DNA of 64,000 bases from Vulcanimicrobiota bacterium (lineage in GTDB: Bacteria; Vulcanimicrobiota; Xenobia; Xenobiales; QWHO01). The notes under the pieces are model-generated. The model worked only from the letters and a program-made list of their open reading frames with translations. It did no database searches and had not been told where the DNA came from. The stretch is taken from contig CAUJEN010000048.1 in the NCBI GenBank assembly GCA_963169765.1, positions 1 to 64,000 on the forward strand, read 5' to 3'. Shown piece by piece: positions 22,239-46,826 of this stretch. The first letter of the stretch is position 1; each line of letters begins with the position of its first letter. The translations under genes were made by a program, and so were the position numbers.

Positions 22239-22260
22239 GCTTCTTCGCGCCGCGCCAGGG

Positions 22261-22755
22261 TCAGCCCAGGACCAGCAAAGCCTCGGCCGCGCCGATGCGA
22301 TAGCCGGCCACGAAGGCCTCCTGCACCAGGGAGCGATAATCCTCGGCCTGATCGCTGCGAGCATAGAGCGCGCGTCCCCGCTCCTGCTCGGCGGCCAGCG
22401 TCCGCTGCAGGGCCGGCTTGCCCTGCTGGTGCATCTCCCGGCGCAGCTCCTCGGCCTGCCCGGCGATGCCGTCGCGCAGCTCCACCGAGCGCAGCGCCCA
22501 GGCGGTCATGGCTCCAAAGCAGCCGGCCGTCAGCCCGCCTTCCAGGAAGGCCAGGGCCGTCTCGCGGGCCTGCTCGGGCAGCTCGGGGCGCGACCTGATC
22601 TCGTCCAGCGCCTGCTGGCCGCCCTCCAGCGTCTGCTCCACGATGTCCTGGAAGACCGGCTCCCACTGCTGGCGGTCTTCCTTGAGCATGTCGATGAGGC
22701 CGGGGGCCGAGCTCTTGACCTCCTGGTAGAGGTCGTTGACGGGCTGGATGCGCAT
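22261..22755 (-). CDS. Hypothetical protein (164 aa)
   Basis: ATG at 22755 (MRIQPVNDLYQEVK...), helical protein-like composition; sits between two + genes. Confidence 0.4.
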   Translation of the reverse strand: MRIQPVNDLYQEVKSSAPGLIDMLKEDRQQWEPVFQDIVEQTLEGGQQALDEIRSRPELPEQARETALAFLEGGLTAGCFGAMTAWALRSVELRDGIAGQAEELRREMHQQGKPALQRTLAAEQERGRALYARSDQAEDYRSLVQEAFVAGYRIGAAEALLVLG

Positions 22756-22860
22756 GAGCGAAGGGTAGCACGCCCCCCGGCCGGGGGATGTATCGGGTTT
22801 GTTGCGGTTCGGGCGACCGACGGGACAGGGGCCGCTCGGAGCGAGCGAGAAACGGACCCA

Positions 22861-31600: not shown

Positions 31601-32191
31601 GTGGGTGAGCTGGTCCGGGGCTGGGCACCCCCGGCCGAGTCCTGCCGGGAGTTGTTGAGCCGGGTCGGCTGCCAGCCCCTGCTGGACGTCAGTCCCTTCT
31701 TTCTCTATCGCGTGGTGCGCAAGGCCGGGGTAGATCGCGAAGGGGTGCTCCTCGAGCTGGCCGAGGCCGAACATTTCGGGCAGTTGGCCCGGCAGGCCGA
31801 CCTCTGGCTGCGCCAAGCGGTGAACGAGATGAGGGTGGACGATCGGTTCGCGCGGCTCCTCGGGGAGAAGGTCCGGGATCTGTTCTTGTCCGACAAACAG
31901 CCCGATGCTCGCCAGCTCCAGAATATCGAGCTGGCCTGCAGCCGGCCGGCGTATCGCCGCTGGATGGCCGTGCAATTACTGACTGGAGGAAGGCTGGATG
32001 GCACGACTGCAAGCACTGGACCTCTCCCGCCTGCTGCGCGCGAGGGTGCTCGCGTTCACGGAGAGCGACGGGTTCCTGAGGGACCCGGAGCTCCGTCGCC
32101 TGGCTCTAAGCCTGTGGGCGGACAGGCCGGAGCGGGGCGGCCTCGTGTCCGACTTGTGGATCGAAGGGACCGTCCCCCACAAACTGAGTGA
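28583..32191 (+). CDS. Large (~1200 aa) protein with N-terminal tandem helix-hairpin-helix motifs; no recognisable catalytic domain
   Basis: LGLSASRLRQLAALGIDSLEALLSYDPLALR (HhH-like); long protein-like ORF; 5' end overlaps upstream gene by 64 bp (alt TTG start ~28668) and 3' end overlaps helicase start by 194 bp with a low-complexity tail. Confidence 0.55.
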   Translation: MSRPEKPFSPWPTRRSEKRLAEPDEATTLLSLGLSASRLRQLAALGIDSLEALLSYDPLALRARTALWEELEEALRDLVCEFHLATRVVTFLKTRPPERPRAPQSLPDQVARVLSSEERPITVRYLRDRLRLDFQVTNLVGLDAVLREHEEVIEYPFGHHRWLGLREWGDRGWRQAATAAWVVLPVHLEQLEASEGKLPADAIRILSQLAEEQGDARVLDLLSRVGSTADRVAEAPAPRRQVLAEATDPPRLFEGLHAGTDLSQFAARLLREVALIRAMGILEWPFSLCQLRLSQGDSMMLRLWARLLNRSRIERWSEGNWLTLEGQSCRAREVLGLVFWTLASEVARRDAREGDAWGVVMRCFSEEAQTVLFSQKGPTQLLRWLLEEAAQTFGLRQVFGQEGQAWYKCLFLQFGFTRQGISQLPSWLNSGTQNTVAVQYLRDNSAEFRNLWSALSAYHTRPDPVRHKQLTEVLRASSFVLPDWHESILLQARRARAESPEGQVSAGQAWVRLDWPEGRSPRFLLPLAENLPDLEESGYEVLLDGRSAACLYRLPEGYRAQPEEIELRPTLSEANLTLVGYDSEETRTEVISLWDQESPALYFSLETGRREERPTGRALAVLTSEGIELAAGADERFPLPNGCQLWRLGAGWTREQQLLQDGDPVAASVAERDPAWAQQVTVAPQGDCVLPGEVTLWVAGLPEGCTLRSCRAGQRPLKLVPQNLGFQGVVQVGAELTSARLPVFLSLRYQSRSVRLRRAVDLPVTGVTLHEGGCWSLLRGQESLTVRQLREGVLRFYTGSDPPGEHAVLEGALLAHRPRAGFQSLEGLEGYGAPLTLTRGPYNASHPGTRLVSSLVNQGRVRAMHRKDETFELHFHKHLEGGPEHTLLWWGQEVHRLPASDLEVCEGPVWEGSVPPDGAPMKAVGLSIAGECRGAWWEPLSADDPLPASAAPWLRWFGFPLQDERWKESARELVRAHPVETLTAWLKATGHENLPLRDLSPAWLQAVGELVRGWAPPAESCRELLSRVGCQPLLDVSPFFLYRVVRKAGVDREGVLLELAEAEHFGQLARQADLWLRQAVNEMRVDDRFARLLGEKVRDLFLSDKQPDARQLQNIELACSRPAYRRWMAVQLLTGGRLDGTTASTGPLPPAAREGARVHGERRVPEGPGAPSPGSKPVGGQAGAGRPRVRLVDRRDRPPQTE

Positions 32192-35100
32192 GCATGACCT
32201 CGGAGGGCTGGCTCGGGAGGGCGAGTTCCCGCTCCGATTGGCCGAGCACCTGGGCCGTCGCGGCATCTTCCCTCCGGGCCAGAAGCTGTATTCCCATCAG
32301 GAGGAAAGCCTGCGGGCCTCAAACCAGACCGGGGCCCGGCCCGCGGTGATCGTGACCGCGGGAACGGGCGGAGGAAAGACTGAAGCTTTTCTGTTTCCGA
32401 TGTTGCAGGCCATCGAGGACGCGCCCCGCCAGCCGTTCGGAGGGGTCCAGGCGCTCATCCTGTATCCGATGAATGCCCTGGTGAACGATCAGGTGGATCG
32501 CCTCACCAACTGGCTGGCGGGACAAAAGCATGTGCGCTTTGCGCACTTTACCTCCGACACCCCGGAGGACTGGGCCCACGCGGGAAGGATGGGAGTGCCC
32601 GAATGGGATGAGTCGCGCTGTCGAACCCGGCGCCAGGCCCGCGGCCTGGAGACGCACAAAGGAAAGAAGATCGATGACCCCGCGGAACGTCTGAGCGTTC
32701 CGAACATCTTGATCACGAACTACTCCATGCTCGAATACATGCTGGCCCGGCCTCAGGACCGGGTCTTCTTCGGGAGCGACCTGCAGGTCGTGGTCCTGGA
32801 TGAGGCCCATCTCTACACCGGTACTCTGGCGGCCGAGCTGACCTTGCTCCTGCGGCGAACGCTCGAGCGTTGCGGCAAGCGCGCAGAGGACGTCCTGCAC
32901 CTGGCGACCTCCGCCACCATCGGAACGGGCGCGGACGAGGAATTGCTCGAGTTTACCTCCGTGCTCTTTTCGAAGCCTCGCTGGCTGGTCAAGCTCCTGA
33001 GGGGTGTCCCGGCCGAGCCTGACTGGCCGGCGCCCCGTGCTCCCCGGGTCGAGCCGAGCGCAGACTCGTTTCTGGACGCCGACCGTAACGAGCTCAGCCT
33101 GCGAGCCACCACCATCCGACTGCTGGCCCGCCAGGACCGCCAGGAGGAAGAGCTGGTCGTGGACGAGCGGGAATGCCGACAACTGGCCCCGCTCCTGGCC
33201 ACCCTGGTGGAGGAGGAAACCGTGCAGCAAAGCCTGCGCGACTGCCAGGGACAGGTGGCCGGCTTCCTCTACGGCTGCCTGCGGCATGCGCCCGTCATGC
33301 AGCGGCTCGATCAGCTCCTGCGCGGCCGGCGATTCCAGACCGTCCCCCAACTCTCCCACGCGCTGCTCGGCCAGGACGATGCTCGGGGTCAGGAGGTCGC
33401 CTTACGCCTCCTGTCCCTCGGCTCCGCGGCTCGCCTTCACCTCAAAGAGCTGCCCCTGCTTCCCCATCGGCTGCATCTCATGGTGAGGCCTGCCAGCGGG
33501 CTCTCGGTCTGTTTGAGCTCGAGCTGCTCGGGGCCGCGCTGGGCGCCCTTCGGATGCCTGCAGGATGGCAATCGTGACGTCTGCGAGCACTGCGGACATC
33601 TCGTGCTCAGCCTGCTGCGCTGCTCCAACTGCGGAGAGGCGGCTCTGGGAGCGGACCGGGCCGGAGGGAAAGTCGTGGCGCACCAGCCCAGAGGCTTCAA
33701 GCCGCGCGCCGCCGAGCTGGTTCTCTGTCAGTCCGGCCGCCAGGGCACGCCATACCATCTCGACGCGCTGAAGGGCCGTCCTGTCGGGCCCGGGATGGGA
33801 ACGGAGCTCACCCTCGTGGAGGAGTGCCCCAACTGCGGGGATGAGCTGGACGCTTTTCGCGCCGTGGCCACTCCGGGCGGCTTCTTCCAGTCCATCGTGG
33901 CCGAGACCCTGCTGGCGGGAGTTCCCCCTCTCGTCGGCGAGCATCCTCCCCACATCCTCCCCGCGGAAGGCAGGCGGCTCCTGGCCTTCAGCGACAGCCG
34001 GGCCGAGGCCGCGCGGCTGGGTCCGCGCCTTCGGGTCCAGCACGAGCAGCAGGTCGTCCGCGCGGCCCTGGTGGACCTGCTTCGAGAGGGCGGCGGAGCC
34101 GACCCGGCGGTCATCGCCTACCGGCGCGCGCAGCTGGCCGACCTGCAGAAGAAGCTCACCCCCGAGCTTCCGGAGACCCTGGCCCGCGAGATTCGCGCCG
34201 ACATGGGCCGGGTCGAGGCGGAGTTGCTGGCCCTGGAGCAGGGCGGCACCATCGCGGACTGGGGGCGCAAGCTGGGAGAGCATAAGCTGCTCGAGCAGCT
34301 GCTCGACTTCGAGGGTGGCGAGCGCCACCAGTGGAAGGAGTGGAGCCAGCGGGTCTGGGCCGCCAATCACGCTCGGGTCAGGCTGCAGGCCGAGATGCGG
34401 CTGGGTAACGAGCTGGCGGCTCCCAACCGGCGGAGGTTCAACAACCTCGAGACCATCGGGTGGGCCGAGATCACTTATCCGGGCCTGGACCTCCTCGGCC
34501 CTCCGGAAGGCTTCCTGGGCGAGCTGCCCCGACGAGCGCGCCAGAGCCTGGCCCCGGCCTGGACCGAGCTGCTGGCAGCCTTGCTCGATTGCCTGCGCGG
34601 GGAGTTCGCGATCACTCTGGGCTCGCGCGAGCGCGATCTGCTGTGGCGCCCGGGCGACGTCCCCTACGGGCAGTGGTTCGAGCGGCCTCGCTTCATCGGC
34701 AAGCAAAGGCGCCAGCGCCTCCGCCGGTTCTTGCGAGCCGTGCTGGTCCAGGCAGGAATGGACGGAGACGAGGCCGAGAAGACGGCACCGGAGGTGCTGG
34801 CCGTGATCTTCGACCAGCTGGCGGGCAGGGCCCGCGACCGTCTCAAGAGCGAGGCCGGGTCCGGCCAGCTGCCCTGGCTCGAGGTTTACGCGGGCTACGT
34901 GACCGAGAAGGACGGAGTGACAACCGCCCTGCGCCTGCGCTTCCCCGAGTTGGGCCTGCGCCGGCCCACCCGCCTGTACCGCTGCCAGGTCAACGGGCGC
35001 GTCTGGCCCCGCTCGGTGCTGGGTTGCTCGCCGGACCCGGGCTCGGAGGTCACTCTCGAGGAGATCGCCCCGGAGGAGCTGGACCGCACGCCTCCCTTCA

Positions 35101-37199
35101 GCCGTGCTCGCCTGGAGTACGCGCAGAGTCCGGTTTTCCGCATCGGATTGTGGGCCGAGGAGCACAGCGCCCAGCTCTCTCCGGCGGAGGGGCGCCGCCT
35201 GCAAGAGCTCTTTCGGGCCGGCCTGCGGAATCTGCTCTCGGCCACCACCACCATGGAGCTCGGCATCGACATCGGGGGTCTCTCGGCGGCCTTTCTCTCC
35301 AACGTCCCGCCGGGCAAAGCGAACTACCTCCAGCGTGCCGGCCGCGTGGGACGCCGGGCGGACGGCAGCTCGATCGTCGTGACGGGCGCCCGCACGCTGC
35401 CGTATGACCGGGAGGTCTTTCAGCGCATGGGGGACTTCTTCGGGCGCAGCCTGCGCAAGCCCCAGGTCTTTCTCGACCGCATCCGGGTGGTCACCCGGCA
35501 CCTGCACGCCTGGCTCATGGGCGCCTTCTTCGGCCAGCTTTACCGGCCGACCCACCAGGTGGGCGCCATGCGTGCCTTCGGTCAGATGGGCTCCTTCTGC
35601 GGGAGGGCCGTGCCCGACCGGGTGGACAGGCACGCTCGGCCGCGTCCCGAGCTGATTCCGAGACCCCGCGCCGTGGTCGAAGGCGAGTTCATTCCCCCCG
35701 TCTGGTGGGACCAGTCCGCCGAGCAGCCCGAGGATGGCCTGGTGGTGCAGTTTCGGCGTTTCACGGCTTACGTGCGCGGGCCGGGCCGGGGGCAGCTCCA
35801 GCCGCTCTTGACCGAGCTCTTTCGAGGCACCGTCCTGAATCTCGAGTCAGCCTGGGACGCGACTCTCCAGGCAGCCGAGGACCAGTTCGCCAAAATCACC
35901 TCCGATTGGCTGCGCGAGTATGATCAGCTCGTCGGCAGCTGGCTGGCGGCCGAGGACGCCCGTCTGGCCAACTCGCTGCGCTACCAGTTGGGCTCCCTGG
36001 CCGGGGTCACGGTCATCGAGGCGCTGGCGGACGCCCAGTTCCTGCCTCGCTACGGGTTCCCCATCGGGCTCCTGCGGTTGAGGGTCGTGCTGGACGATCA
36101 GGACCTTCGCGAGCAGCGCGAGGAGGACCGTTACCGCCTGGAGCGCCCGGGCCTCCTGGCCCTCAGGGAGTATGTGCCGGGCAGCGAGATCCTGGTGGGC
36201 GGTCGGCTGATCACCAGCCGGGGCCTCCTCAAGCACTGGACCGGAGAGAACCTGGACGAGGCGTTCGGCCTGCAGATCCTGGCCCGGGAATGCCGTTTCA
36301 ATCACTTCTACTACACGACCGGCCGCGACCTGGGCCCCTGCCCCATTTGCGCGGACCCGCCCGAGACCCGCATCCGAACCCTGTTGCTGCCCCGGCACGG
36401 GTTCAGCACGGCCAAATGGGATCCGCCCCAGCAGGCTGCGCAGGCCAGTAGGGTGGGCTCGGTGGAGCGGGCCACCATCACGTTCCAGAAGGACGAGCAA
36501 GAGCTTCAGGACCAGAATTTCGGCGCCATCCCGGGTCTGGTGGCGCGCTACGCCTCCGAGGGGGAGATCCTGGTCTACAACCAGGGTGCCCACGAGTGCG
36601 GCTTCGCCATCTGCACCCGGTGCGGCTTTGCCGACAGCGAGAAGAAGCTGGGCCAGCAGGCCATGCACCTCCCGAAAGGGTTTGCCGATCACCTGCCTCT
36701 TCATCAAAAGGACGGGCCGCGGTGCTGGAAGGACGATCAGGTCACCGTCCTGCGCAATCGCGACCTGGCCGCCCGGCAGACGACCGACGTGCTCTTGCTG
36801 GACTGGTCGCGCGTCCTGGGCCGTGAGCTGCGCGACGAGATCCTGGTCCTGACCCTGACCGTGGCCCTGCAGCTGGCGGGTGCACGGCTGCTGGAGCTGG
36901 ACTCGCGGGAGCTGGGCTCGATGGTCGTTCCCCTGCGCCCCGACGAGTGGGGCGGGGTCGTGTACGACAACGTTCCCGGAGGCGCGGGGCACGTGCTCGA
37001 GCTCTACCGGCTCGGCTCCGCCTGGCTGCGCGAGGCCGAACGGCTCCTGTTCGTCAGTCCCGAGCATGACCAGCGCTGCAACAGCGCCTGCCTCGACTGC
37101 CTGATGAGTATCGACGCCCAGATTCTCCTGACCGAGGCGCGGCTCGAGCGCCGTCGGGCTCTCGGGGCCCTGCGCTCGGCTCTGGGAGCGGCCGTGTAA
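31998..37199 (+). CDS. SF2 DEAH-box helicase with C-terminal DUF1998/MrfA-type zinc-binding module (DruE / Lhr / BrxHI / DrmA+B-like)
   Basis: Motif I AVIVTAGTGGGKTEAF, Ia ILYPMNALVNDQ, II VVLDEAHLY, V-VI LSATTTMELGIDIGG...YLQRAGRVGRR; Cys clusters CPNCGDELD, CEHCGH...CSNCGE, CPICADP, CTRCGFAD; ATG 31998 with GGAGGA RBS. Confidence 0.85.
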   Translation: MARLQALDLSRLLRARVLAFTESDGFLRDPELRRLALSLWADRPERGGLVSDLWIEGTVPHKLSEHDLGGLAREGEFPLRLAEHLGRRGIFPPGQKLYSHQEESLRASNQTGARPAVIVTAGTGGGKTEAFLFPMLQAIEDAPRQPFGGVQALILYPMNALVNDQVDRLTNWLAGQKHVRFAHFTSDTPEDWAHAGRMGVPEWDESRCRTRRQARGLETHKGKKIDDPAERLSVPNILITNYSMLEYMLARPQDRVFFGSDLQVVVLDEAHLYTGTLAAELTLLLRRTLERCGKRAEDVLHLATSATIGTGADEELLEFTSVLFSKPRWLVKLLRGVPAEPDWPAPRAPRVEPSADSFLDADRNELSLRATTIRLLARQDRQEEELVVDERECRQLAPLLATLVEEETVQQSLRDCQGQVAGFLYGCLRHAPVMQRLDQLLRGRRFQTVPQLSHALLGQDDARGQEVALRLLSLGSAARLHLKELPLLPHRLHLMVRPASGLSVCLSSSCSGPRWAPFGCLQDGNRDVCEHCGHLVLSLLRCSNCGEAALGADRAGGKVVAHQPRGFKPRAAELVLCQSGRQGTPYHLDALKGRPVGPGMGTELTLVEECPNCGDELDAFRAVATPGGFFQSIVAETLLAGVPPLVGEHPPHILPAEGRRLLAFSDSRAEAARLGPRLRVQHEQQVVRAALVDLLREGGGADPAVIAYRRAQLADLQKKLTPELPETLAREIRADMGRVEAELLALEQGGTIADWGRKLGEHKLLEQLLDFEGGERHQWKEWSQRVWAANHARVRLQAEMRLGNELAAPNRRRFNNLETIGWAEITYPGLDLLGPPEGFLGELPRRARQSLAPAWTELLAALLDCLRGEFAITLGSRERDLLWRPGDVPYGQWFERPRFIGKQRRQRLRRFLRAVLVQAGMDGDEAEKTAPEVLAVIFDQLAGRARDRLKSEAGSGQLPWLEVYAGYVTEKDGVTTALRLRFPELGLRRPTRLYRCQVNGRVWPRSVLGCSPDPGSEVTLEEIAPEELDRTPPFSRARLEYAQSPVFRIGLWAEEHSAQLSPAEGRRLQELFRAGLRNLLSATTTMELGIDIGGLSAAFLSNVPPGKANYLQRAGRVGRRADGSSIVVTGARTLPYDREVFQRMGDFFGRSLRKPQVFLDRIRVVTRHLHAWLMGAFFGQLYRPTHQVGAMRAFGQMGSFCGRAVPDRVDRHARPRPELIPRPRAVVEGEFIPPVWWDQSAEQPEDGLVVQFRRFTAYVRGPGRGQLQPLLTELFRGTVLNLESAWDATLQAAEDQFAKITSDWLREYDQLVGSWLAAEDARLANSLRYQLGSLAGVTVIEALADAQFLPRYGFPIGLLRLRVVLDDQDLREQREEDRYRLERPGLLALREYVPGSEILVGGRLITSRGLLKHWTGENLDEAFGLQILARECRFNHFYYTTGRDLGPCPICADPPETRIRTLLLPRHGFSTAKWDPPQQAAQASRVGSVERATITFQKDEQELQDQNFGAIPGLVARYASEGEILVYNQGAHECGFAICTRCGFADSEKKLGQQAMHLPKGFADHLPLHQKDGPRCWKDDQVTVLRNRDLAARQTTDVLLLDWSRVLGRELRDEILVLTLTVALQLAGARLLELDSRELGSMVVPLRPDEWGGVVYDNVPGGAGHVLELYRLGSAWLREAERLLFVSPEHDQRCNSACLDCLMSIDAQILLTEARLERRRALGALRSALGAAV

Positions 37200-37226
37200 T
37201 GCGAAACGAGCTCTTGGAGGGATCTT

Positions 37227-40200
37227 ATGCCGCTTGACGGCCAGCACTGGAAAGCCATCTCGCCCAGCCAGTTCCCCTGGGAGGAAGAGGCCCTGGCCTG
37301 GTTGCGCCGCATTCTGGATCGGCCCTGGGCCCTGCGCGGCTGGTCCAACTTCGAGGTGGTGGATGGGCAGGGGCGCCGCTATGAGATCGACGCGCTGGTC
37401 CTGACCGTGCACGGGCTCTTCCTGGTCGAGATCAAGTCTTACTCGGGGCAGGTGCTGGCCGACCCCTACCAGCTCATCCGGCGCCAGGGGCAGGGAGCGC
37501 CCTTCGTGGAGACCAATCCGCTGTCTCTCACCAACCACAAGTGCCGCGTGCTGCGCTCGGCCCTGGGGCGCAACATCCCCCGCCTCGAGGCCGTGCTCTT
37601 TCTGAGCCACCCGGAGGTGCACCTCACGGTCAAGCCGGGCATCCCGCAGCACATCTACACGCGCAACACCCTGCCGGCTTTCCTTCGGAGCGCCGGTCGG
37701 CCGGTGATCGACAGCGCCACCGAGGCCCGAGTCGTGCAGGCCATGAAAGACAGCGGGATCAGCACGCAGACCCGGCGCAGCGTATTCGTGGGCGAGTACG
37801 TGCTGCAGACTCTGCTGGGCGAGGGCCCCGACTGGCAGGACTTTCTGGGCAAGCACCGCTCGATGGACCACGTGCGGCGCGTGCGGGCTTTCTCGGCCCG
37901 CCTCGAGGACCGGGAGGCTCGCGAGCGCGCCAAGCGCGCCGCCCAGCGAGAGTTCCGCCTGCTCGAGTGGATCAACCACGACGGGGTTCTCAAGCCCATC
38001 GACTACAAGGAGCACGAGCTGGGCCACTGCCTGATCTATCCCTTCTACCCGGACGCCGCCCGGCTGGACCACTTTTTGGCCACCCCCGAGCTGGGCGAGC
38101 GTCAGGGCCGGGCCCAACGTTTGAAGCTCTGGCGCCAGCTGGCCGACATCCTCAGGTATGCCCACGAGCGCAAGCTTTACCATCGCGCCCTGGCGCCCCA
38201 GAATGTGCTGATCCTGAGCCCGTCCACCGAGAGCCTGCGTCCTCTCATCATGAACTGGCAGACGGCCCGCGCCTCGGACCAGACCACCGGCACCGTGCAC
38301 CTCCAGGACCTGGTGGAAGACCAGACCACGGCCTACATGGCTCCCGAGGCCATGCTGTATCCGGAGAGCGCCGCCGAGCAGGCCGACCTCTTCTCGCTCG
38401 GTTGCCTCGGCTACTTCATCCTGAGCGGGCAGCCCCCGGCCAGCACGCAGGTCGAGCTGCAGACCCGGCTTCAGGAGTACCCTGGGCTCCGCCTCACGTC
38501 CGTGCTCGACGGCGTGCTGCCCGAGCTGGCGGAGCTGGTGGAGCGCTGCACGCATCCCGACCTGTCCGAGCGGCTGGATTCCGTGCCCGAGTTCCTGAGC
38601 CGGCTCGCCCGCGTGGAGGCGCTTCTGGCCGGCGAGCTGGAGCCCGCGGCCGAGGAGATCGATCCGGCCCGGGCCCAGCCCGGCGATCCCCTGGTGGGAG
38701 GTCTCCTCTTCCAGAAGCCCCTGGGCCAGGGCGGGGTGGCGGTCGCCTACCAGGTGCAGCGGGGCAACGAGACCCTGGTTCTCAAGGTGGCCCTGAAGGC
38801 CGAGAGCAACCAGCTGCTGGAGGACGAGGCGGAGGTGCTGGCCCGGCTCAACGACCGCCAAGTGGTGCAGCTTCGCCAGACCCTCAAGGTCTCCGACCGC
38901 CGCGCCCTGCTCTTGAGCTTCGCGGGTCCCGAGACCCTGGCCGAGCGTCTGCGCCGGGAGGGCCCGCTGCAGCTCGAGCTGTTGAGCCGTTTCGGAGACG
39001 ACCTGCTGCGCCTGGTCGAGGTGCTCGAGAAAGCGGGAGTCCATCACCGCGACCTCAAGCCGGCCAACCTCGGCGTTCTTCCGATGGGGGAGAACAACGA
39101 GCTGCGGCTGGTGCTCTTCGATTTCTCGCTCTCCCGGGTTCCCGTGGACCGGCTGGAGGTGGGCACGCGTGATTACCTGGACCCGTTCCTCAGCCTGCGC
39201 CGACCCCCTCGCTGGGATCTCTCCGCCGAGCGTTATGCCGCCGCACTGACCCTTTACGAGATGGCGACCGGCGTGCTGCCCCGCTGGGGTGACGGACAGA
39301 CCAACCCGGCCGTGGTGGCCTGCAAGCTGGTCCTGGAGGAGGAGCGCTTCCCCCCGGAGCTGCGGGCCAGCCTGGGTGGGTTCTTCCGGCGCGCCCTGGC
39401 TCGCGACGCCAGCCAGCGTTTCGACAATGCCGAGGAGCTGCGCACGGCCTTCCGCCAGGCGCTGGAGAGCCGCCAGGCGGAGGACCAGATCGGGGCCGAG
39501 CGTACGGACTGGAGCCAGGTCGCCGCCGCCACGCCGGTCACCGAGCTGGGCCTCAGCCCTGCGGGGGTTCAGGCTCTGGACCGGATGGGCATCCTGCGGG
39601 CCGGCGACCTCGTGGCCCTGACCCGGGCACGGCTCACGCGCGAGCGAGGGTTGGGCAGCCGGACCCGCCGCGAGCTTCTGGCCGTTCGGGATCGGCTGCT
39701 CGAGCTGCTCGGTCAGCCCGAGCCGGAGGTGGCTCCGGGGCAAGGGCTGGAAGGCCTGCTGGCGTTTCTCGAGCGCGCTGCCGACCCCGGCGAGCAGGCG
39801 CTGGCCCGCGTGTTTCTCCAGCCCGACCTCCACTGGCCTACGCTGCAGGAGCTGGCCCAGGCTCTGCGCGCCGGCCCCAACGAGCTGCGCCGGCAGATGC
39901 CCCGGTTGCGGCGGACCTGGCAGGAGGTCGAGGAGCTGTCTCCGGTCCTCGATCAGGTGGCCGAGCTGCTGGCGGGGCTCGGTGGCGTGGCTGTGGCCGA
40001 GGACGTGGTGCGGGCCCTTCTCATCGCGCGCGGCTCGACCTCCAACCAGCCGTCGGAGCGCCAGGGACGCGCCCGCGCCCTGCTGCGCGCCGCGCTCGAG
40101 CTCGAGGGCCTGAGCGAGACACCCCGGTTCTTCCATCAGCGGATGGAGGGCGACCGTCACCTGGTGGCCGCCCAGAACGCGCTGGTGCCCTATGCCCTGC

Positions 40201-41231
40201 GCCTGGGAGAGGTGGCCGATCAGCTCTCGAGCGAGGAGCCACTGCCTTCCCGCGCTCGGGTGCTCGAGCGCCTCCAGGAGCTTGCGCCCCCGGAGAGAGC
40301 CAGCCCGTTGACGGAGGCCTCGCTGCTGCGCCTGGCCGCGGGGATGGCCAGGCAGGCGGCCCTCTCGTCCCGAGGCGAGTTCTACCCGGTCGGAATGGAG
40401 GCGCGGCGGGCCCTGCTGCTGTCGCACGGGGCGCTTCTGGGAACCTGGTCGCTCACCCCGGCCCAGCTGGCCGAGCGCGTCAAGAGCCGCTATCCCGAGG
40501 CCCGGGACCTGCCTCTGCGGCCGGAGCTGGACCGGCTGCTGGCCGACCTGGAGCTGGACTTCGTGTGGAACGAGGAGAGCGGTGGCTACCATCGTCGCTT
40601 CGGGGGCCTGAACCTCTCCACGACCACTCCCAGCGGCTCGCGCGGGCTCCTCAAGCCGACCCAGGAGCCGATCCCGCAGGCCCAGCTTCACCAGCGTCTG
40701 GCGCGGCTGGTCCGCGAGCGCTCGCCCCTGGTGGTGACCTCCCGCTCGCGGGACCTGGAGAGCGCGCAGGCTGCCCTGGTGGAGCGCTGGGCCTTTCAGC
40801 CCGTGTCCGTGGAGGCGGCCCTGCTGGCCGCCCTGGAAGAGGTCGGCCGCGAGCGCAGGATTCCCTGGGAGACCCTGCTGCGCACCGATCGGGCCGGGCC
40901 CGACCACCCGGACTGGGGCCGCCTCCTGCAGGTGGTGCGACTGGCTCTGGCCCGGGTGGAAACCGAGCTCAAGCTCCGCTCGGGGCCCGTCTTGCTCGAG
41001 CGCCTGAGCCTGCTGGCCCGCTACCAGCCGGACCTCAAACTGGTCGAGGAGCTGCTGGCGTGCAGCGGCCAGCCGGGCTGCCCCGGGCCGGTCTGGGTCC
41101 TGACGGCTGTCCGCTCGGAGGGCGAGCTGCCCAGGGTGGACGGCCGGCCGGTGCCGCTGCCGGTGGCCACGCACCCGGTTTTCTTGCCGGCCAGCTGGCT
41201 GTATGAGAAGGCCGAGGCCGCGCCGGCCTGA
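37227..41231 (+). CDS. NERD domain + tandem Ser/Thr kinase-like domains (first degenerate, second canonical) + C-terminal HhH-containing extension; PglW-like
   Basis: NERD YEIDALVLTVHGLFLVEIKSYSG; kinase 1 with HRALAPQN (catalytic Asp replaced) ; kinase 2 with LVLKV, HRDLKPANL, DFS, GTRDYLDP; GGAGGG RBS 5 nt upstream of ATG 37227. Confidence 0.85.
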   Translation: MPLDGQHWKAISPSQFPWEEEALAWLRRILDRPWALRGWSNFEVVDGQGRRYEIDALVLTVHGLFLVEIKSYSGQVLADPYQLIRRQGQGAPFVETNPLSLTNHKCRVLRSALGRNIPRLEAVLFLSHPEVHLTVKPGIPQHIYTRNTLPAFLRSAGRPVIDSATEARVVQAMKDSGISTQTRRSVFVGEYVLQTLLGEGPDWQDFLGKHRSMDHVRRVRAFSARLEDREARERAKRAAQREFRLLEWINHDGVLKPIDYKEHELGHCLIYPFYPDAARLDHFLATPELGERQGRAQRLKLWRQLADILRYAHERKLYHRALAPQNVLILSPSTESLRPLIMNWQTARASDQTTGTVHLQDLVEDQTTAYMAPEAMLYPESAAEQADLFSLGCLGYFILSGQPPASTQVELQTRLQEYPGLRLTSVLDGVLPELAELVERCTHPDLSERLDSVPEFLSRLARVEALLAGELEPAAEEIDPARAQPGDPLVGGLLFQKPLGQGGVAVAYQVQRGNETLVLKVALKAESNQLLEDEAEVLARLNDRQVVQLRQTLKVSDRRALLLSFAGPETLAERLRREGPLQLELLSRFGDDLLRLVEVLEKAGVHHRDLKPANLGVLPMGENNELRLVLFDFSLSRVPVDRLEVGTRDYLDPFLSLRRPPRWDLSAERYAAALTLYEMATGVLPRWGDGQTNPAVVACKLVLEEERFPPELRASLGGFFRRALARDASQRFDNAEELRTAFRQALESRQAEDQIGAERTDWSQVAAATPVTELGLSPAGVQALDRMGILRAGDLVALTRARLTRERGLGSRTRRELLAVRDRLLELLGQPEPEVAPGQGLEGLLAFLERAADPGEQALARVFLQPDLHWPTLQELAQALRAGPNELRRQMPRLRRTWQEVEELSPVLDQVAELLAGLGGVAVAEDVVRALLIARGSTSNQPSERQGRARALLRAALELEGLSETPRFFHQRMEGDRHLVAAQNALVPYALRLGEVADQLSSEEPLPSRARVLERLQELAPPERASPLTEASLLRLAAGMARQAALSSRGEFYPVGMEARRALLLSHGALLGTWSLTPAQLAERVKSRYPEARDLPLRPELDRLLADLELDFVWNEESGGYHRRFGGLNLSTTTPSGSRGLLKPTQEPIPQAQLHQRLARLVRERSPLVVTSRSRDLESAQAALVERWAFQPVSVEAALLAALEEVGRERRIPWETLLRTDRAGPDHPDWGRLLQVVRLALARVETELKLRSGPVLLERLSLLARYQPDLKLVEELLACSGQPGCPGPVWVLTAVRSEGELPRVDGRPVPLPVATHPVFLPASWLYEKAEAAPA

Positions 41232-41261
41232 CGTCCAACGTTGAAGGGTACGGCCACCAGT

Positions 41262-41392
41262 GGGGCGCATTGCGTCCACGGTATAAACTGGATTGGGAAG
41301 GTTTGTTTGGCAGGATACCTGTCGAATGCCGGCCCACGAGCTTTGGATCGAACACGAAGGATCGAGGTGCTCAGGTGGCGCGAGCGGATCTG
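41262..41392 (+). repeat. ~130-bp leader element (includes TATAAA box, GAGGTG RBS and first codons of the AAA+ gene), copy A; near-identical copy at 63204-63332
   Basis: Direct alignment: GGGAAGGTTTGTTTGGCAGG(G)ATACCTGTCGAA(T/G)GCCGGCCCACGAGC and GGATCGAGGTGCTCAGGTGGCGCGAGCGGATC identical in both copies. Confidence 0.85.
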
Positions 41393-42331
41393 TTACTGGA
41401 CCTGGTCAGGGCCGGGACGCAAGGGGATCAGGCGCGCTTTCGCAAGGTCGTCGAGGCCTTGATTGCGGAGGAGCGCTCGAAGCAACACCACATTCTAGCT
41501 GACCACCTGAGTGCTCAGCTTCGCGTCAACGGGAACGGGAGCAAGACCAGCGTCGCTTTTCAGCGAGCCAGCGACTATTTCACCTCATCGATACCGCAAA
41601 GGACCTTCACCGATCTGGTCCTACCCGAGCCGGTTCTGGAAGCTTGCCGCGAGATCGTCGAGGAGCACCATCGACGCGAGGTCCTTTTCTCCCACAGCCT
41701 GGAGCCGCGACATCGCATCCTGCTGACCGGCCCCCCCGGGAATGGAAAGACTAGCCTGGCGGAAGCTCTGGCCACGGAACTCATGGTGCCGTTCTATCGC
41801 CTTCGCTACGAGAAGGTGATCGGCAGCTACCTGGGCGAAACCGCGCAGCGGCTGGCCAACCTCTTCGTCGAGGCGAGGGCTCAACATTGCGTGCTGTTTC
41901 TCGACGAGTTCGAAACGCTGGGAAAGGAGCGCGGGGACGAGCACGAGACCGGTGAGATCAAGCGGGTCGTTTCGTCCTTGCTTCTGGAGGTGGATGCCCT
42001 GCCGAGCCACACGGTGATCGTCACCGCTACCAACCACCCCGAATTGCTTGACCGGGCAGTGTGGCGCCGTTTCCAGGTTCAGCTCGAGCTGCCGGCTCCG
42101 GGCCCGGCACAGATTCGCGAGTGGTGGCAACGTTATCAGGCCGCCACGGGCCTCAAGCTGAAGCGCAACATTGACAATCTGACCGAGCGCTTCCGAGGAG
42201 CAAGCTTCTCGGACCTGGAGAATTTTGGGGCAGACCTGCAGCGTCGCTTTGTCTTAAGTCTCCCCGAGGCCTCCGTGGAGACCCTTCTGAGCAAGAGACT
42301 CAAACGGTGGAAGCCCCGAAAGCAGAGCTGA
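41375..42331 (+). CDS. AAA+ ATPase (classical AAA clade)
   Basis: Walker A LLTGPPGNGKTSLA, Walker B CVLFLDEFE, sensor-1 TATN, Arg finger region RAVWRRF; no in-frame ATG, GTG at 41375 preceded by GAGGTG RBS (ORF opens with TTG at 41270). Confidence 0.8.
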   Translation: MARADLLLDLVRAGTQGDQARFRKVVEALIAEERSKQHHILADHLSAQLRVNGNGSKTSVAFQRASDYFTSSIPQRTFTDLVLPEPVLEACREIVEEHHRREVLFSHSLEPRHRILLTGPPGNGKTSLAEALATELMVPFYRLRYEKVIGSYLGETAQRLANLFVEARAQHCVLFLDEFETLGKERGDEHETGEIKRVVSSLLLEVDALPSHTVIVTATNHPELLDRAVWRRFQVQLELPAPGPAQIREWWQRYQAATGLKLKRNIDNLTERFRGASFSDLENFGADLQRRFVLSLPEASVETLLSKRLKRWKPRKQS

Positions 42332-42342
42332 GTCCGACCTGA

Positions 42343-44895
42343 ATGCCCGACGCAACCAGCCATCCCCTCCTTCTACTGCCGAGACCAACCAGCGCCGAAC
42401 GTAAAGGCAAAGGCGGCGGGGGAGCAAAGCTCGCCAAACCCTCGCGCTCCGAGCAGGCACGGCGTCTTGGGCCCGAGCTGAGGTCGCTGACCCTGGCCTT
42501 GGAGCAGAAGCGCCTGCGGCTTCAGGCGGGGGTGAGCGGCATCGTCCCGGAGGAGGTGCTGGTTCTCGAAACAGCCGGGCCGGTCCAGAATTTTCTAAAC
42601 GCCGTCCGCAAGATCGAAGAGCTGGAATGGATGGCTGAGTGGGATCGCGACTTTGAGCCCGACGAGTACTTTCAGGACGCGAAGAGTCCGGAGAAGGTCC
42701 TGGGCGGGCGTCTGTACCTCGTCCTGACCACCGATGCCGCCATCAAGGATCTCCTGGCTCTCTGGAACCTGTGGGAGAAAGGCCAGAAACTCCCGACAGG
42801 ATTTGCTCCTTGGGGCGAGGCTTTCACCCATCTCAAGACGATCCGATTCTGGAATGCGCATGATCGTATGGAGGCCACCGGCGTTCTCGAGGACTGGGAG
42901 CGTCGCATCGAGTCCGGTGCCGAGCTCGTTCCGGCCGAAGTGGAGCTGTGGTTTCGTGCCGGTCCCGAGCGGAGAGCGAGGGCTGCGGAGAGAGTGCGAA
43001 CGCTGGTCGTGGGCTGTGGGGGCCGGGTTGTCCAGGTGGCCGCCATTGAGGAAATCCATTACCATGGGCTCCTGGTGGAGATCCCCCGAAGTGAGGTTCG
43101 TCGGCTGGACGAGATCGACGAGGTCGACCTCTTCCTCTGCGAGCAGGTCCAGTTCTTCCGCCCGGTTGGTCAGATGGTCGCACCGAGCAGCGAAGAGTCC
43201 ACCCCCGACGCGACGGAGCAATTTGCTGGCGAAGTCGCGGGGGAGCCGGTAGCTGCTCTGCTCGACGGGCTGCCTCTCGAGAACCATGACGTCCTGGCGG
43301 GCCGCCTCCTCGTCGACGACCCCGATGGTTGGGCCTCGGGTTATCCGGCAGCCCGGCGCGAGCACGGAACTTGCATGGCCTCGCTCATCGTGCAGGGAGA
43401 TCTCGAGCGGCCATCGGGGGGCCTCCCCCGCCCGTTGTACGTGCGCCCCATCATGCAGCCTGTGACCGGAGACTATCCAGGTACGGGGGAGCGTTGCCCC
43501 GAAGACCAGCTCCTGGTGGACCTGGTGCATCGTGCGGTGCGGCGGATGTTCGTCGGGGATGGTGGGTCCGGCCCGGTGGCGCCCACGATCAAGGTCATCA
43601 ATTTCTCGATCGGGGATCGGGACCGTCCTTATGATCACATGATGAGCCCGCTGGCTCGATTGCTGGACTGGCTCAGCTGGGAGCACAAGGTTCTGTTTGT
43701 CGTCAGCGCCGGCAATCAGCGTCGACCTATCGATCTGGACACCACTCGGCCCGCGTTTGAGGCTCTGGCTCCACCGGCTCGCGCCGACATGATCCTTTCC
43801 AAAACAAGAGAGGAGCACATTTATCGGCGCATCCTCTCGCCGGGCGAATCGATCAATGCTCTGACGGTGGGGGCAACCTACTCGGATCATTCGAGTCCGA
43901 CCGGCGCCGGCACGGTGTTCGTACTGCCTGGCGGCATCCCGGCTCCTTACACTCGGCAGGGACCAGGCTATCGTGGGATCATCAAGCCGGACCTGGTCAT
44001 TGCGGGCGGCCGGCTTCCGTTCCGGATAGACCTTGCCGCTCACACAAAGATTCATCTGGTGGAGGGCGTGCTGGCTCCCGGGCACAAGAGCGCGGCCCCG
44101 GGCCCGGGGCCAGGCCAACGCAACCGGACGCGCTACAGCCGGGGCACCAGCAACGCCGCCGCCCTGTTGACCCGCCAGGGTGCGAGGTTTACTGAGCTCC
44201 TGGCGAGTCTCCGCCGAGACCCTGGCGGCCAACTGCTTGATGAGGTCCCCGAGAGTCTCTTTCTGAAGGTCCTGCTCGTGCACGGCGCTCGCTGGCCCGA
44301 CGAGTGCGTCAGCCTCCTCACCCGAATTTCTGGATTCGCTCCGGAGAGCAAGGAAGGGCTGACGCTGACCCGACGGTTCACCGGTTATGGCCTGCCGAAC
44401 TTCGAGCGGGTTGCCTTCTGCACAGACCAGCGGGTGACCGCGCTGAGCGGTGGCGCACTGGAGGAGGACCAGGGCCACGTTCACAGCCTGCCGCTCCCGA
44501 CGGCACTTTCTGGTCAGCGAGGAAAGCGACGTGTCACGGTCACGCTGGCCTATTTCACGCCCGTGCAACCAGGCCGGCGAGAATACTCGGTCGCCGACCT
44601 CTGGTTCAAGATCGAGAATCGCGGCGTCCTGCAGCTTGAAGGCGCTGGCGCGGATTTCTATGCCGTCGAGCGCGGTACGGTGCAGCACACCATCTTTGAG
44701 GGAGAGCGCGCCAAAGTCTTCGATGACGAGGAGAGCCTGAACATCCAGGTGTCGTGTCGATCCCAGGCGGGCCCGATCGTGGAGCCGATTCCCTATGCCC
44801 TGGCCGTCACGTTGGAGGTGGCGCCGAAGCTGAATCTTCCCATTTATTCCCAGGTCCGAGAGCGTCTGCGCCTCAGGATTCGGCCTCAAGAGTGA
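42343..44895 (+). CDS. S8 subtilisin-like serine peptidase with ~300-aa N-terminal domain of unknown function
   Basis: Catalytic motifs LLDGLP (Asp), HGTCMASLI (His), VVSAGNQ (oxyanion Asn), GTSNAAALL (Ser); starts 11 bp after AAA+ stop. Confidence 0.85.
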   Translation: MPDATSHPLLLLPRPTSAERKGKGGGGAKLAKPSRSEQARRLGPELRSLTLALEQKRLRLQAGVSGIVPEEVLVLETAGPVQNFLNAVRKIEELEWMAEWDRDFEPDEYFQDAKSPEKVLGGRLYLVLTTDAAIKDLLALWNLWEKGQKLPTGFAPWGEAFTHLKTIRFWNAHDRMEATGVLEDWERRIESGAELVPAEVELWFRAGPERRARAAERVRTLVVGCGGRVVQVAAIEEIHYHGLLVEIPRSEVRRLDEIDEVDLFLCEQVQFFRPVGQMVAPSSEESTPDATEQFAGEVAGEPVAALLDGLPLENHDVLAGRLLVDDPDGWASGYPAARREHGTCMASLIVQGDLERPSGGLPRPLYVRPIMQPVTGDYPGTGERCPEDQLLVDLVHRAVRRMFVGDGGSGPVAPTIKVINFSIGDRDRPYDHMMSPLARLLDWLSWEHKVLFVVSAGNQRRPIDLDTTRPAFEALAPPARADMILSKTREEHIYRRILSPGESINALTVGATYSDHSSPTGAGTVFVLPGGIPAPYTRQGPGYRGIIKPDLVIAGGRLPFRIDLAAHTKIHLVEGVLAPGHKSAAPGPGPGQRNRTRYSRGTSNAAALLTRQGARFTELLASLRRDPGGQLLDEVPESLFLKVLLVHGARWPDECVSLLTRISGFAPESKEGLTLTRRFTGYGLPNFERVAFCTDQRVTALSGGALEEDQGHVHSLPLPTALSGQRGKRRVTVTLAYFTPVQPGRREYSVADLWFKIENRGVLQLEGAGADFYAVERGTVQHTIFEGERAKVFDDEESLNIQVSCRSQAGPIVEPIPYALAVTLEVAPKLNLPIYSQVRERLRLRIRPQE

Positions 44896-45416
44896 TCTGA
44901 CCAAGCCCCTTCCGGCCGGGCGAGGCCGCGCCCGGGCTGCGCGAGAGGAGGCCGAGAAGAGCTTCGAAGAAAGGTGAAGTACTATCAATGTCGCCATGGA
45001 GCAAGTGGGGATGCCGTGCAGCAAAGCAGAGATTCTGAAGAGTTCCAAATTCCCGAGGGGAGGGGCTCCCGAGTGGGCAGGCTCTTGTGCTTGCCACCAG
45101 AGAAGCGAGATCTCATCCTTGCTTTGGCATCCAGCATGGCGCAAAAGCTTTACCTCCGCAGGGACGACATCAATATGGACACGTGCCGTAGCAGTCAGAA
45201 CACCGGATCGTTTTGGGCATGTGTGCTCGCGTCAGTCCGAGGGTAGTATCCTCCAAGAACGCGGACGACGGGGAAACCCCTCTGTGATTCGTTTTCCGGT
45301 GATTCTTGGCAGGAATTGCACTCTCGCCGCGAAGAGTTGCCCGTGCCGCGAGTACCTGCTTCAACTCAGAGTGTTCTGGACATATTCCAGCTTTGCCGTC
45401 AGGTCGGCACATCGCC

Positions 45417-46811
45417 ATGTTGAAGCTCCTCCCGAACCGCAAGCCTTTCCCTCGGGGCCGCCTGCTCGCTCGCAGCGCGAGGACGGGCGTCCACCAGATG
45501 CTGCGCCAGGCCAACGAACCCTATTACTGGTACCGGAACAGGGACGACTATGCTCATGACCTCGGCGCCGAAGACCTCTTCCTGGACGACCTTGGCGTCT
45601 GGTTCTTCGAGCAGTTCGACACGAGCCTTCCGGCGTTCCCGTATCTAGGGGTCGCTCTTGGCCTGCTCATGGCTCGCTGGGATGACTTGAAGTCGGCTGT
45701 CGTACCTGCCAAGCCCTTCTGGAACCGGCACTACAACAGTAAGCGCAAGGCCCACGCGGGCGAGCCTCGCTCCCTGCTCCGACTCGACCGCGCCCGGGAT
45801 GCCCTGTCTTTGTCTCTCGGGGATCGCGTCGAAGGTCCGGACGTTGAGCGCGGTTTCGACTGGCGCCTTCTCCAGGGGCGTTACGGGCCGGAGCTCTTCT
45901 GGCCCCGCTGGTTCGATTTGCCCTACGAGCGTGCCCTGTGGCGGCTCTCGCCCAACCAGGAGTTCGAGCCGTGGAGCCCCTGGCTGTTGCTGCCAGAGGA
46001 GCTGAGACGCTTCCAGGACCTCGAGTTGCCGCAGCCACCGGACCGCTCAGATACTTCCTCCGGCGTCGAGCTGCCGGAGGGTTGGTCCCCGACCGTCCCC
46101 AGCTATGAGATTCTCCCGGTCGAGTTCTCCACGCCCGACCTGCCCCTGCGGGTCGGCGCCGAGGAGAAAGACCTGGCTCGATTCGAGCTACATGTGCTGG
46201 ACCAGGGTCCCAACCCAACCTGCGTCGCTCACGCCGTCTGCACCGCGCTCGACATTCTGCGCAAGCGCAAGCCTCGCCAGCGCGACCACCAGTTCTTCGC
46301 CCCTGCCGACCTCCACATGCGCTGCGGATCGAGCTGGTCCACCGGGCGGAAGCTCTCCGCGGTGATCGACGAGCTCCGGAAGGGCTTGCCTGCTAGCCAG
46401 ACCCCGAAGAGCCGACCAAACTATGGCTCCCCCACAGTCCGCGACCTGAGCGTGCGGGATATTCCCCGACTTAAGGCCCACCTCGCTGCCGGCTGGGTGG
46501 TGGTGATAACCACTTATTTGCCGGAGGAGACCTACCGCAGCAACGCCTTCCGCGAGTTTGGAGAGCCGTTGCGCCCACTCCCCGGCCAGCAACGCCGCAC
46601 ATCCGGCCACGCCTGGGCACTGGTCGGCTACGAGCACGTGGACGGCAACCAGCAGTGGAAGTATCAGGGCCGCTTCATCGCCCTGAACAGCTGGGGCCCG
46701 GGCTTTCCGGATAGACCGCGCCTCCGTCCAGGACTGGTCTCCCTCCCGTTCTCTTTTGTCTACAGCGAAGGGATCGAGGCTTACGCCTTGCGGCTGCCAA
46801 GCTGTGAGTGA
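45417..46811 (+). CDS. Papain-like (C1 family) cysteine peptidase, cytoplasmic
   Basis: QGPNPTCVAHAVCTALD (Gln/Cys region), HAWALVGYEH (His), NSWGPGF (Asn-Ser-Trp-Gly) matching papain catalytic landmarks; no signal peptide; start among 45306/45417/45498 uncertain. Confidence 0.6.
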   Translation: MLKLLPNRKPFPRGRLLARSARTGVHQMLRQANEPYYWYRNRDDYAHDLGAEDLFLDDLGVWFFEQFDTSLPAFPYLGVALGLLMARWDDLKSAVVPAKPFWNRHYNSKRKAHAGEPRSLLRLDRARDALSLSLGDRVEGPDVERGFDWRLLQGRYGPELFWPRWFDLPYERALWRLSPNQEFEPWSPWLLLPEELRRFQDLELPQPPDRSDTSSGVELPEGWSPTVPSYEILPVEFSTPDLPLRVGAEEKDLARFELHVLDQGPNPTCVAHAVCTALDILRKRKPRQRDHQFFAPADLHMRCGSSWSTGRKLSAVIDELRKGLPASQTPKSRPNYGSPTVRDLSVRDIPRLKAHLAAGWVVVITTYLPEETYRSNAFREFGEPLRPLPGQQRRTSGHAWALVGYEHVDGNQQWKYQGRFIALNSWGPGFPDRPRLRPGLVSLPFSFVYSEGIEAYALRLPSCE

Positions 46812-46826
46812 ATTCTGGAGGTGTGG

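Follow-up and report, generated by a model that had tools for sequence, protein, structure and literature searches.

Organization of the locus

We analyzed the first 64,000 nucleotides (here called the window) of contig CAUJEN010000048.1 from a Vulcanimicrobiota bacterium and in particular an open reading frame (ORF) at positions 37227-41231, which begins with an ATG codon and encodes a 1334-aa protein identified below as PglW, a serine/threonine kinase of bacteriophage exclusion (BREX) type 2/Pgl systems. All features lie on the plus strand unless stated otherwise. This gene closes a tight, codirectional set of genes that begins with brxD (27349-28647). Next comes a gene for a 1183-aa protein in which no domain could be detected, hereafter the partner (28640-32191), which overlaps brxD by 8 nt and lies upstream of the helicase gene, in the position that druH occupies in Druantia. 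It is followed by a gene for a 1684-aa superfamily 2 (SF2) helicase of the YprA/MrfA family that resembles DruE3 (32145-37199) and shares 47 nt with the partner gene, and pglW then starts 27 nt past the helicase stop codon. The starts of the operon genes, that of brxD included, were taken from the NCBI gene calls in locus L038. A promoter and terminator scan of 26.3-45.5 kb gave counts no higher than the shuffled expectation and is uninformative about the limits of the operon in such high-GC DNA.

The terminal gene encodes a full-length PglW

The NCBIfam equivalog model NF033442 (BREX_PglW) matched residues 6-1327 of the ORF product over model positions 1-1389 of 1391, with a score of 1197.8 bits (cutoff, 990), and the PADLOC PglW model PDLC02512 matched residues 6-1331 over positions 4-1398 of 1403 with 1203 bits. 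Of 258 strong homologs, many are listed by NCBI as “BREX system serine/threonine kinase PglW.” Judged by its sequence, the product is a bona fide full-length PglW of BREX type 2/Pgl. An initial annotation of this ORF had compared its tandem kinases with those of PglW; the arrangement was recognized correctly, but the protein is PglW itself, passing the NCBIfam cutoff and matching the PADLOC model end to end. The fusion of a NERD domain to a pseudokinase-kinase pair is likewise already known, being the published and defining architecture of PglW (PMC4365076; PMC12839542). Hoskisson et al. (2015) described PglW as a NERD domain, an atypical kinase domain lacking an ATP site, and a Hanks kinase, and showed that the K677A change in the Hanks kinase of Streptomyces coelicolor PglW abolishes both autophosphorylation and phage resistance (PMC4365076). 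A 2026 survey in Nucleic Acids Research (NAR) lists a NERD restriction endonuclease domain, a pseudokinase, an active kinase, a module like the C-terminal domain of the RNA polymerase α subunit (α-CTD), three BrxA-like winged helices, and a C-terminal inactive BrxB-like STAND domain (PMC12839542). Every PglW family feature that can be tested by sequence or model was found in the window protein, which has the domain order of S. coelicolor PglW (SCO6627) and NF033442 over its full length and shares the invariant residues of the family, including DFS in place of DFG. It is ~70 aa shorter than a typical PglW, by way of small clade-specific deletions.

Since the same pglW occurs in identical copies on independent contigs and its orthologs in loci L046 and L047 differ with a ratio of nonsynonymous to synonymous substitution (dN/dS) of 0.11, it is a real gene and not a chance pattern. 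A 1810-aa ORF on the minus strand (35847-41279), running across pglW and into the 3′ end of the helicase gene, was rejected as a gene; it is an antisense shadow of the kind typical of coding DNA with 68-70% GC.

An N-terminal NERD and kinase module is common to PglW, MAD6 (of MADS), some DndF proteins (of DndFGH), and the Mokosh protein MkoA, and DndF proteins with a NERD and tandem-kinase module have been described (PMC12839542). The NCBIfam MAD6 model matched residues 19-605 of the window protein with 250 bits, and the PADLOC models for mad6 and MkoA matched as well, all below the cutoffs of those families. In contrast to window PglW, these proteins have different C-terminal halves and different partner genes.

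Domains and catalytic residues

The initial annotation had placed a NERD domain at the N terminus, and Pfam detects one there (PD-(D/E)xK nuclease fold; residues 18-118, 37278-37580; E value, 1.4e-11). In an alignment of 119 full-length homologs, on which all statements of residue conservation are based, residues E53, D55, E68, and K70 of this domain are invariant (119/119), and the nuclease active site appears to be intact.

The first kinase-like domain, a pseudokinase, spans residues ~187-470 (37785-38636), as delimited by a Pfam kinase-like match at 229-450 and a residue-by-residue alignment with CDPK1. All of the motifs that had been quoted for the ORF are present in the protein: YHRALAPQNVLIL, which corresponds to residues 318-330 in kinase domain 1, as well as VLK, HRDLKPAN, and DFS. 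The alignment with CDPK1 bore out the statement that the first domain has lost both the catalytic Asp and the Lys that follows it: HRD has become HRA, and the catalytic-loop Lys has become Ala. In addition, the VAIK Lys is Arg220 and DFG is NWQ; the α-C Glu and APE are retained. No Asp lies at or beside the catalytic position of domain 1, so that a catalytic Asp at a shifted position was not found, and across the 119 homologs the HRD Asp position holds Ala in 86, Ser in 15, Gly in 12, Asn in 5, Thr in 1, and Asp in none. Within the aligned family, then, kinase domain 1 is degenerate throughout PglW and nonetheless strongly conserved. The Arg that replaces the VAIK Lys (R220) is found in 119/119 homologs and N-W-Q is nearly invariant, while H319 and W344 are fixed, R320 is present in 118/119, Q204-D205, Q345, and E242 are nearly fixed, and R218 and N343 are invariant or nearly so. 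This suggests a conserved noncanonical site instead of relaxed decay. Because the substituted residues are invariant or nearly so throughout the family, the dead kinase domain may hold a conserved site for sensing a ligand or nucleotide, or a noncanonical catalytic site, and not be an inert scaffold.

The second kinase domain is of the Hanks type (residues ~497-745, 38715-39461; Pfam Pkinase match at 497-733, whole-protein E value of 7.9e-38) and is intact, as the annotation had held. Its motifs are VLK (K520), HRDLKPAN (607-614), and DFS (632-634), and G500, G502, K520, E534, H607, R608, D609, K611, N614, and D632-F633-S634 are each present in 119/119 homologs. We therefore predict that domain 2 is a catalytically competent Hanks-type Ser/Thr kinase. 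A PDB sequence search with PglW returned only generic kinases, so there is no solved PglW structure.

The direct pairing of a dead kinase with a live one in immune signaling has analogs in eukaryotes, namely, the JH2-JH1 pair of JAK and the tandem-kinase immune receptors of plants, in which the dead domain plausibly regulates or senses. Homology with these proteins is limited to the kinase fold, and PglW differs from them in adding nuclease and DNA-binding modules.

The “HhH-like” C-terminal motif mentioned in the initial annotation is present and of the α-CTD type, but it is only the first module of a C-terminal half of ~580 aa that also contains winged helices and an α/β domain. This α-CTD-like helix-hairpin-helix (HhH) module occupies residues ~768-828 (39528-39710). 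The Pfam RNA_pol_A_CTD model (HhH fold) matched residues 768-817 with 21.1 bits, just below the 23.8-bit cutoff, and the region forms a short helical bundle in the AlphaFold2 (AF2) model with a predicted local distance difference test score (pLDDT) of >90; an α-CTD-like module has been described for PglW (PMC12839542). It is followed by a tandem winged-helix (BrxA-like) DNA-binding region at residues ~840-1123 (39744-40595) and by a C-terminal domain of alternating strands and helices at residues ~1151-1325 (40677-41201; pLDDT of >90). The winged-helix and α/β architecture of the whole C-terminal half was modeled at a pLDDT of 91. Conservation from residue 1101 onward is 0.24-0.30 in 50-aa windows, so the α/β domain is among the less conserved stretches; its assignment as an inactive STAND (BrxB-like) sensor is taken from the published description of the family (PMC12839542). 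The proposal that the protein couples DNA sensing to phosphorylation agrees with the published view of PglW.

The genes upstream of pglW

The product of the first gene scored 354.3 bits with NCBIfam NF033438 (BREX_BrxD; cutoff, 350) and 358 bits with the PADLOC BrxD model, matched Pfam BrxC_BrxD with an E value of 1.7e-100, and shares 33% identity along its entire length with the BrxD annotated in a Thiodictyon BREX type 2 locus. By these matches it is a genuine BrxD, an AAA+ ATPase of the ORC/Cdc6 type that is otherwise confined to BREX type 2.

The helicase has the Pfam domains DEAD, Helicase_C, and MZB (1623-1702) and matched the PADLOC DruE3 model PDLC00037 with 691.6 bits. Its MZB/DUF1998 zinc module lies at the extreme C terminus, and no nuclease domain was detected by Pfam. 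We considered whether the helicase ORF (1733 aa) might encode BrxHI and ruled this out: it has only SF2/RecA-core motifs in common with the canonical 699-aa BrxHI, and the PADLOC BrxHI models cover just the Helicase_C stretch.

The partner protein had no match in Pfam, PADLOC, or NCBIfam. It is very rare, with only three to four homologs among the 5.8 billion proteins searched, each encoded beside a DEAD/Helicase_C/MZB helicase of ~1700 aa, and a profile search with a 16-sequence partner alignment returned only 2 proteins, with a sensitivity limited by the word-index filter. The idea that the partner ORF (1202 aa) is a divergent PglX, PglY, or PglZ was also rejected, there being no PADLOC, Pfam, or NCBIfam match even at an E value of 0.5 and its homologs always being paired with the helicase. 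The AF2 model of the partner, built from a 5-sequence alignment, is poor (mean pLDDT, 52.6) and shows a helical N terminus, an all-beta middle, and a helical C terminus. A Foldseek comparison of this model with the PDB gave a best E value of 0.02, and the weak matches to proteins with multiple immunoglobulin-like (Ig) or fibronectin type III domains carry no evidential weight.

BREX core genes were not found in the window

In an annotated plasmid locus the canonical order is pglW, pglX, pglY, pglZ, brxD, and a 699-aa helicase gene, and the canonical loci L049 and L133 have pglX directly after pglW. More generally, among 35 genome loci that encode PglW relatives (35-41% identity), 25 have pglX immediately downstream of pglW or no more than three genes away, and 13 have brxC/pglY downstream of pglW within reach of the 10-kb flanks. 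The window differs from this pattern: pglW has no pglX after it, stands at the 3′ end of an operon with the partner and the YprA-type helicase, and has no pglX, pglY, or pglZ in view. tblastn with 28 PglX and 13 PglY proteins found no homolog of either in the 64 kb (for PglX at E values below 1e-3), and none of the large ORFs gave a PADLOC or Pfam match to PglX, PglY, or PglZ; for PglZ, absence from the 64 kb is based on these scans of large ORFs only, without a tblastn query. Of the components that define BREX type 2, BrxD is present in the locus, and PglX, PglY/BrxC, PglZ, and BrxHI were not found in the window. The surroundings thus differ from those of a BREX type 2 locus, and it is the context, not the protein, that is unusual.

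A clade of PglW proteins encoded next to the helicase

The closest relatives of window PglW include P0006 (52% identity), P0009 (42%), P0012 (41%), and P0024 (40%), short forms of 1328-1347 aa. In each case the gene directly upstream encodes a helicase homologous to that of the window (46-55% identity), and the junctions range from a 4-nt overlap to a zero gap. No pglX was found in their available flanks, and no PglX, PglY, or PglZ was found in the available flanks (up to 10 kb) of loci L044, L046, L047, and L050. A fifth relative, P0007, served as a test of the prediction that a helicase gene should lie upstream; the C-terminal part of such a gene was indeed found on its 6.6-kb contig. All five closest relatives (P0006, P0007, P0009, P0012, and P0024) therefore follow a helicase homolog, the two genes being separated by at most 93 nt and overlapping by at most 4 nt, and a partner homolog precedes the helicase gene in the clade loci wherever the contig reaches.

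In a neighbor-joining tree of 144 PglW proteins (trees were built on corrected p-distances), the window protein groups with the five relatives in a clade of six that has 100/100 bootstrap support and is sister to the 138 canonical sequences, to which the window protein is ~38% identical. The PglW-linked helicases likewise form one clade, with 200/200 bootstrap support, inside which the helicase of L041 also falls; the downstream side of L041 lies beyond the end of its contig. From locus to locus, the identities of PglW, helicase, and partner vary in parallel. dN/dS within the clade was 0.10-0.19 for PglW, helicase, and partner and 0.10-0.11 for pglW in the loci without PglX, values that indicate purifying selection; dS is near saturation. 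Several of the loci are short metagenomic contigs, and L046, L047, and L050 are closely related, so that the clade amounts to about four independent lineages.

A metagenome scan with the helicase profile found ~30 further partner and helicase pairs (35-46% identity) with no PglW, no conserved third gene, and no BREX gene. The partner, of 833-1202 aa, is always upstream of the helicase in the related loci. The pattern is that of a widespread two-gene helicase system, one lineage of which, to judge from the trees, added PglW once and kept it across deep divergence.

Two further observations concern these loci. An ATPase_2/DUF234 AAA+ ATPase is encoded upstream of partner and helicase in L046 (721-2091) and in L115, L120, and L125 (132-1382), in the place that BrxD has in the window, which suggests a recurrent layout of ATPase, partner, and helicase. 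Long variants of the partner (~1500-1600 aa; P0003, encoded at L042 263-5068, L061 2166-6974, L056, L058, and L087) have an N-terminal extension with RNA polymerase α-CTD and Sigma70_r4/helix-turn-helix domains. Residues 95-335 of the L061 partner match positions 805-947 of the PglW hidden Markov model (E value, 5e-6); BLASTP of the P0003 extension against PglW gave nothing significant, so the L061 match is the only link. It hints that in some loci without PglW the partner itself may carry a DNA-binding module of the PglW type, and hence at a connection between PglW and the partner.

Similarity to Druantia type III

The partner and helicase genes recall the DruH-DruE pair of Druantia type III and, in particular, its nuclease-less “III-B/type III-like” branch. 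As in that branch, the window has a large DEAD/Helicase_C/MZB helicase (692 bits with DruE3) with no C-terminal nuclease, preceded by a protein of ~900-1200 aa with no annotated domains, and the two-gene unit occurs widely; a nuclease is lacking in most helicases of the type III-like branch (10.1101/2025.09.15.676423). The window helicase is a YprA-family helicase with an MZB/DUF1998 module, the combination by which DruE is recognized. Unlike Druantia III, the window also has the PglW kinase/nuclease gene and the brxD gene. Biochemically, Escherichia coli DruE dimers load on single-stranded DNA (ssDNA) or 3′ overhangs and unwind in the 3′-to-5′ direction (10.64898/2026.05.13.724758), and ATP inhibits DruH, which binds ssDNA (10.64898/2026.05.12.722862). 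In its published fold, DruH has six Ig-like domains between an N-terminal and a C-terminal domain, and the helical/all-beta/helical layout of the partner, coming from a model with a pLDDT of 52.6, is suggestive of it.

The Druantia and YprA literature that we searched makes no mention of a kinase, PglW, or BrxD, an absence that is no proof of novelty, and the BREX survey makes no mention of YprA or MZB helicases (PMC12839542). Within that literature, the arrangement of partner, helicase, and PglW looks undescribed.

PglW as a putative effector of a Druantia-like helicase system

From the domain content and the recurrent gene order, we think that PglW has probably been recruited as a DNA-binding nuclease/kinase effector of a Druantia III-like helicase system. 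We propose more tentatively, as a possibility to which we lean somewhat less than halfway, that a distinct PglW lineage has left BREX altogether and now serves as the effector and DNA-binding sensor of a methylation-independent Druantia III-like system, an undescribed type that bridges BREX type 2 and Druantia.

Several observations weigh against this interpretation. In L132 (1-6642), the locus of P0007 and the only one of the six clade loci with an adjacent BREX core gene, the helicase C terminus is followed by pglW and then, unexpectedly, by the N-terminal part of pglX with a 4-nt overlap; the triad can thus coexist with the BREX core, which may be ancestral to the clade, and L132 may itself be an intermediate between BREX type 2 and the helicase triad. 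BrxD and PglW both score above the NCBIfam BREX equivalog cutoffs, a clear sign of BREX heritage, and BrxD was found only in the window locus among the clade loci. The partner has no DruH model match (none of ten members of its family matched the PADLOC DruH model) and a poor structure model, so the label “Druantia III” is carried by the helicase and the gene order alone. Finally, our view is of 64 kb of the genome, and the S. coelicolor pgl genes are in two separate operons (PMC4365076).

The best of the alternatives, which we nevertheless regard as rather unlikely, builds on these same points: the locus would be part of an ordinary BREX type 2 system with pglX, pglY/brxC, and pglZ outside the 64 kb, in which PglW acts as in Streptomyces and the YprA-type helicase replaces BrxHI. 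Besides the two equivalog matches, the helicase-pglW-pglX order of L132, and the split operons of S. coelicolor (PMC4365076), it can draw on the canonical loci L001 and L133, which tolerate inserted genes between pgl genes. It is opposed by the lack of PglX, PglY, and PglZ in the 37 kb upstream and 23 kb downstream and in the flanks of L044, L046, L047, and L050, by the position of canonical pglX next or nearly next after pglW, and by the fact that partner and helicase occur as an autonomous two-gene unit in ~30 loci without BREX genes.

It is less probable still, and in our view improbable, that PglW (perhaps an orphan of BREX type 2) and the helicase pair represent two distinct systems brought side by side by chance in a defense island. 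The window is indeed a mosaic of defense genes, with IetAS, GmrSD, and a DrmD-like helicase, and PglW is absent from most partner and helicase pairs. However, the gene order recurs in six loci whose PglW proteins are only ~40-52% identical to that of the window, and the identities of all three proteins covary between loci. Chance adjacency is unlikely because PglW and helicase form matching clades, each with full support, and the gene junctions are close, between a 4-nt overlap and a 93-nt gap. The last alternative, that pglW is a decaying, no longer functional remnant left after the loss of pglXYZ, could appeal to the missing core genes and the ~70-aa shortfall but is very improbable because every catalytic and structural motif is intact in an uninterrupted ORF and dN/dS is low (~0.1 in clade members without PglX), and the C-terminal half folds confidently in AF2.

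If PglW is an effector of the helicase system, the nuclease-less helicase and the partner might engage phage DNA ends or ssDNA/dsDNA junctions, by analogy with E. coli DruE and DruH. BrxD might load or regulate the helicase, a role akin to that proposed for it with BrxHI in BREX type 2 (PMC12839542). PglW would be brought to the same DNA by its α-CTD-like and winged-helix modules and switched on through its C-terminal sensor domain, with the pseudokinase as the allosteric partner of the live kinase; it could then autophosphorylate, phosphorylate targets, and/or cut DNA with its NERD domain, a step that would supply the effector missing from this helicase subtype. In a system that lacks a methyltransferase, self and nonself would be told apart by DNA structure and not by methylation.

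The combination of NERD with a pseudokinase-kinase pair is by itself textbook PglW and adds nothing new; it is the context that matters. The arrangement offers a natural, minimal, methyltransferase-free setting of three to four genes in which PglW is under purifying selection beside a type of helicase that was characterized biochemically in 2026. Such a setting could make testable how the kinase is activated, whether NERD is the nuclease for nuclease-less DruE-like helicases, and what BrxD does. The context also shows that the “accessory” genes of BREX type 2 are portable modules common to Druantia-like systems.

The wider neighborhood

Directly after pglW lie the genes for IetA, an AAA+ ATPase (41270-42331; PADLOC, 452 bits), and IetS, an S8 protease (42343-44895; PADLOC, 982 bits). 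In L001 (5691-9405), a locus with a PglW of the canonical clade, the order is pglW-ietA-ietS-pglX, and its IetA and IetS are 58% and 45% identical to those of the window. The slot after pglW is thus taken by IetAS in two different PglW clades.

Farther downstream are genes for a 501-aa protein with no assigned function (45306-46811) and a GmrSD_N (type IV restriction-like) protein (46821-48623), which give further evidence that the region from 27 to 59 kb is a defense island. They are followed by an ORF of 2507 aa with a Sacsin/HATPase-like domain at the N terminus (48764-56287; Pfam SACS E value, 1e-19; weak TmtA matches), which overlaps the start of a gene for a DrmD-like SNF2 helicase (56284-58980; PADLOC DrmD, 879 bits). 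No other DISARM genes were found around the latter, and the Sacsin-like ORF and the DrmD-like helicase may be a separate, uncharacterized two-gene system.

A tRNA scan found no tRNA gene and so gives no evidence of an integration site. Just upstream of brxD are genes for a CHASE2-cyclase of the adenylate/guanylate cyclase type (17319-19193) and a STAND-like protein that combines cyclase, AAA_16, and TPR domains (21835-26541), both with weak matches to Pycsar cyclases. Among the housekeeping-like genes upstream of the island, on the minus strand, is one for an 820-aa protein with major vault protein shoulder and SPFH/Band 7 domains (12020-14482).

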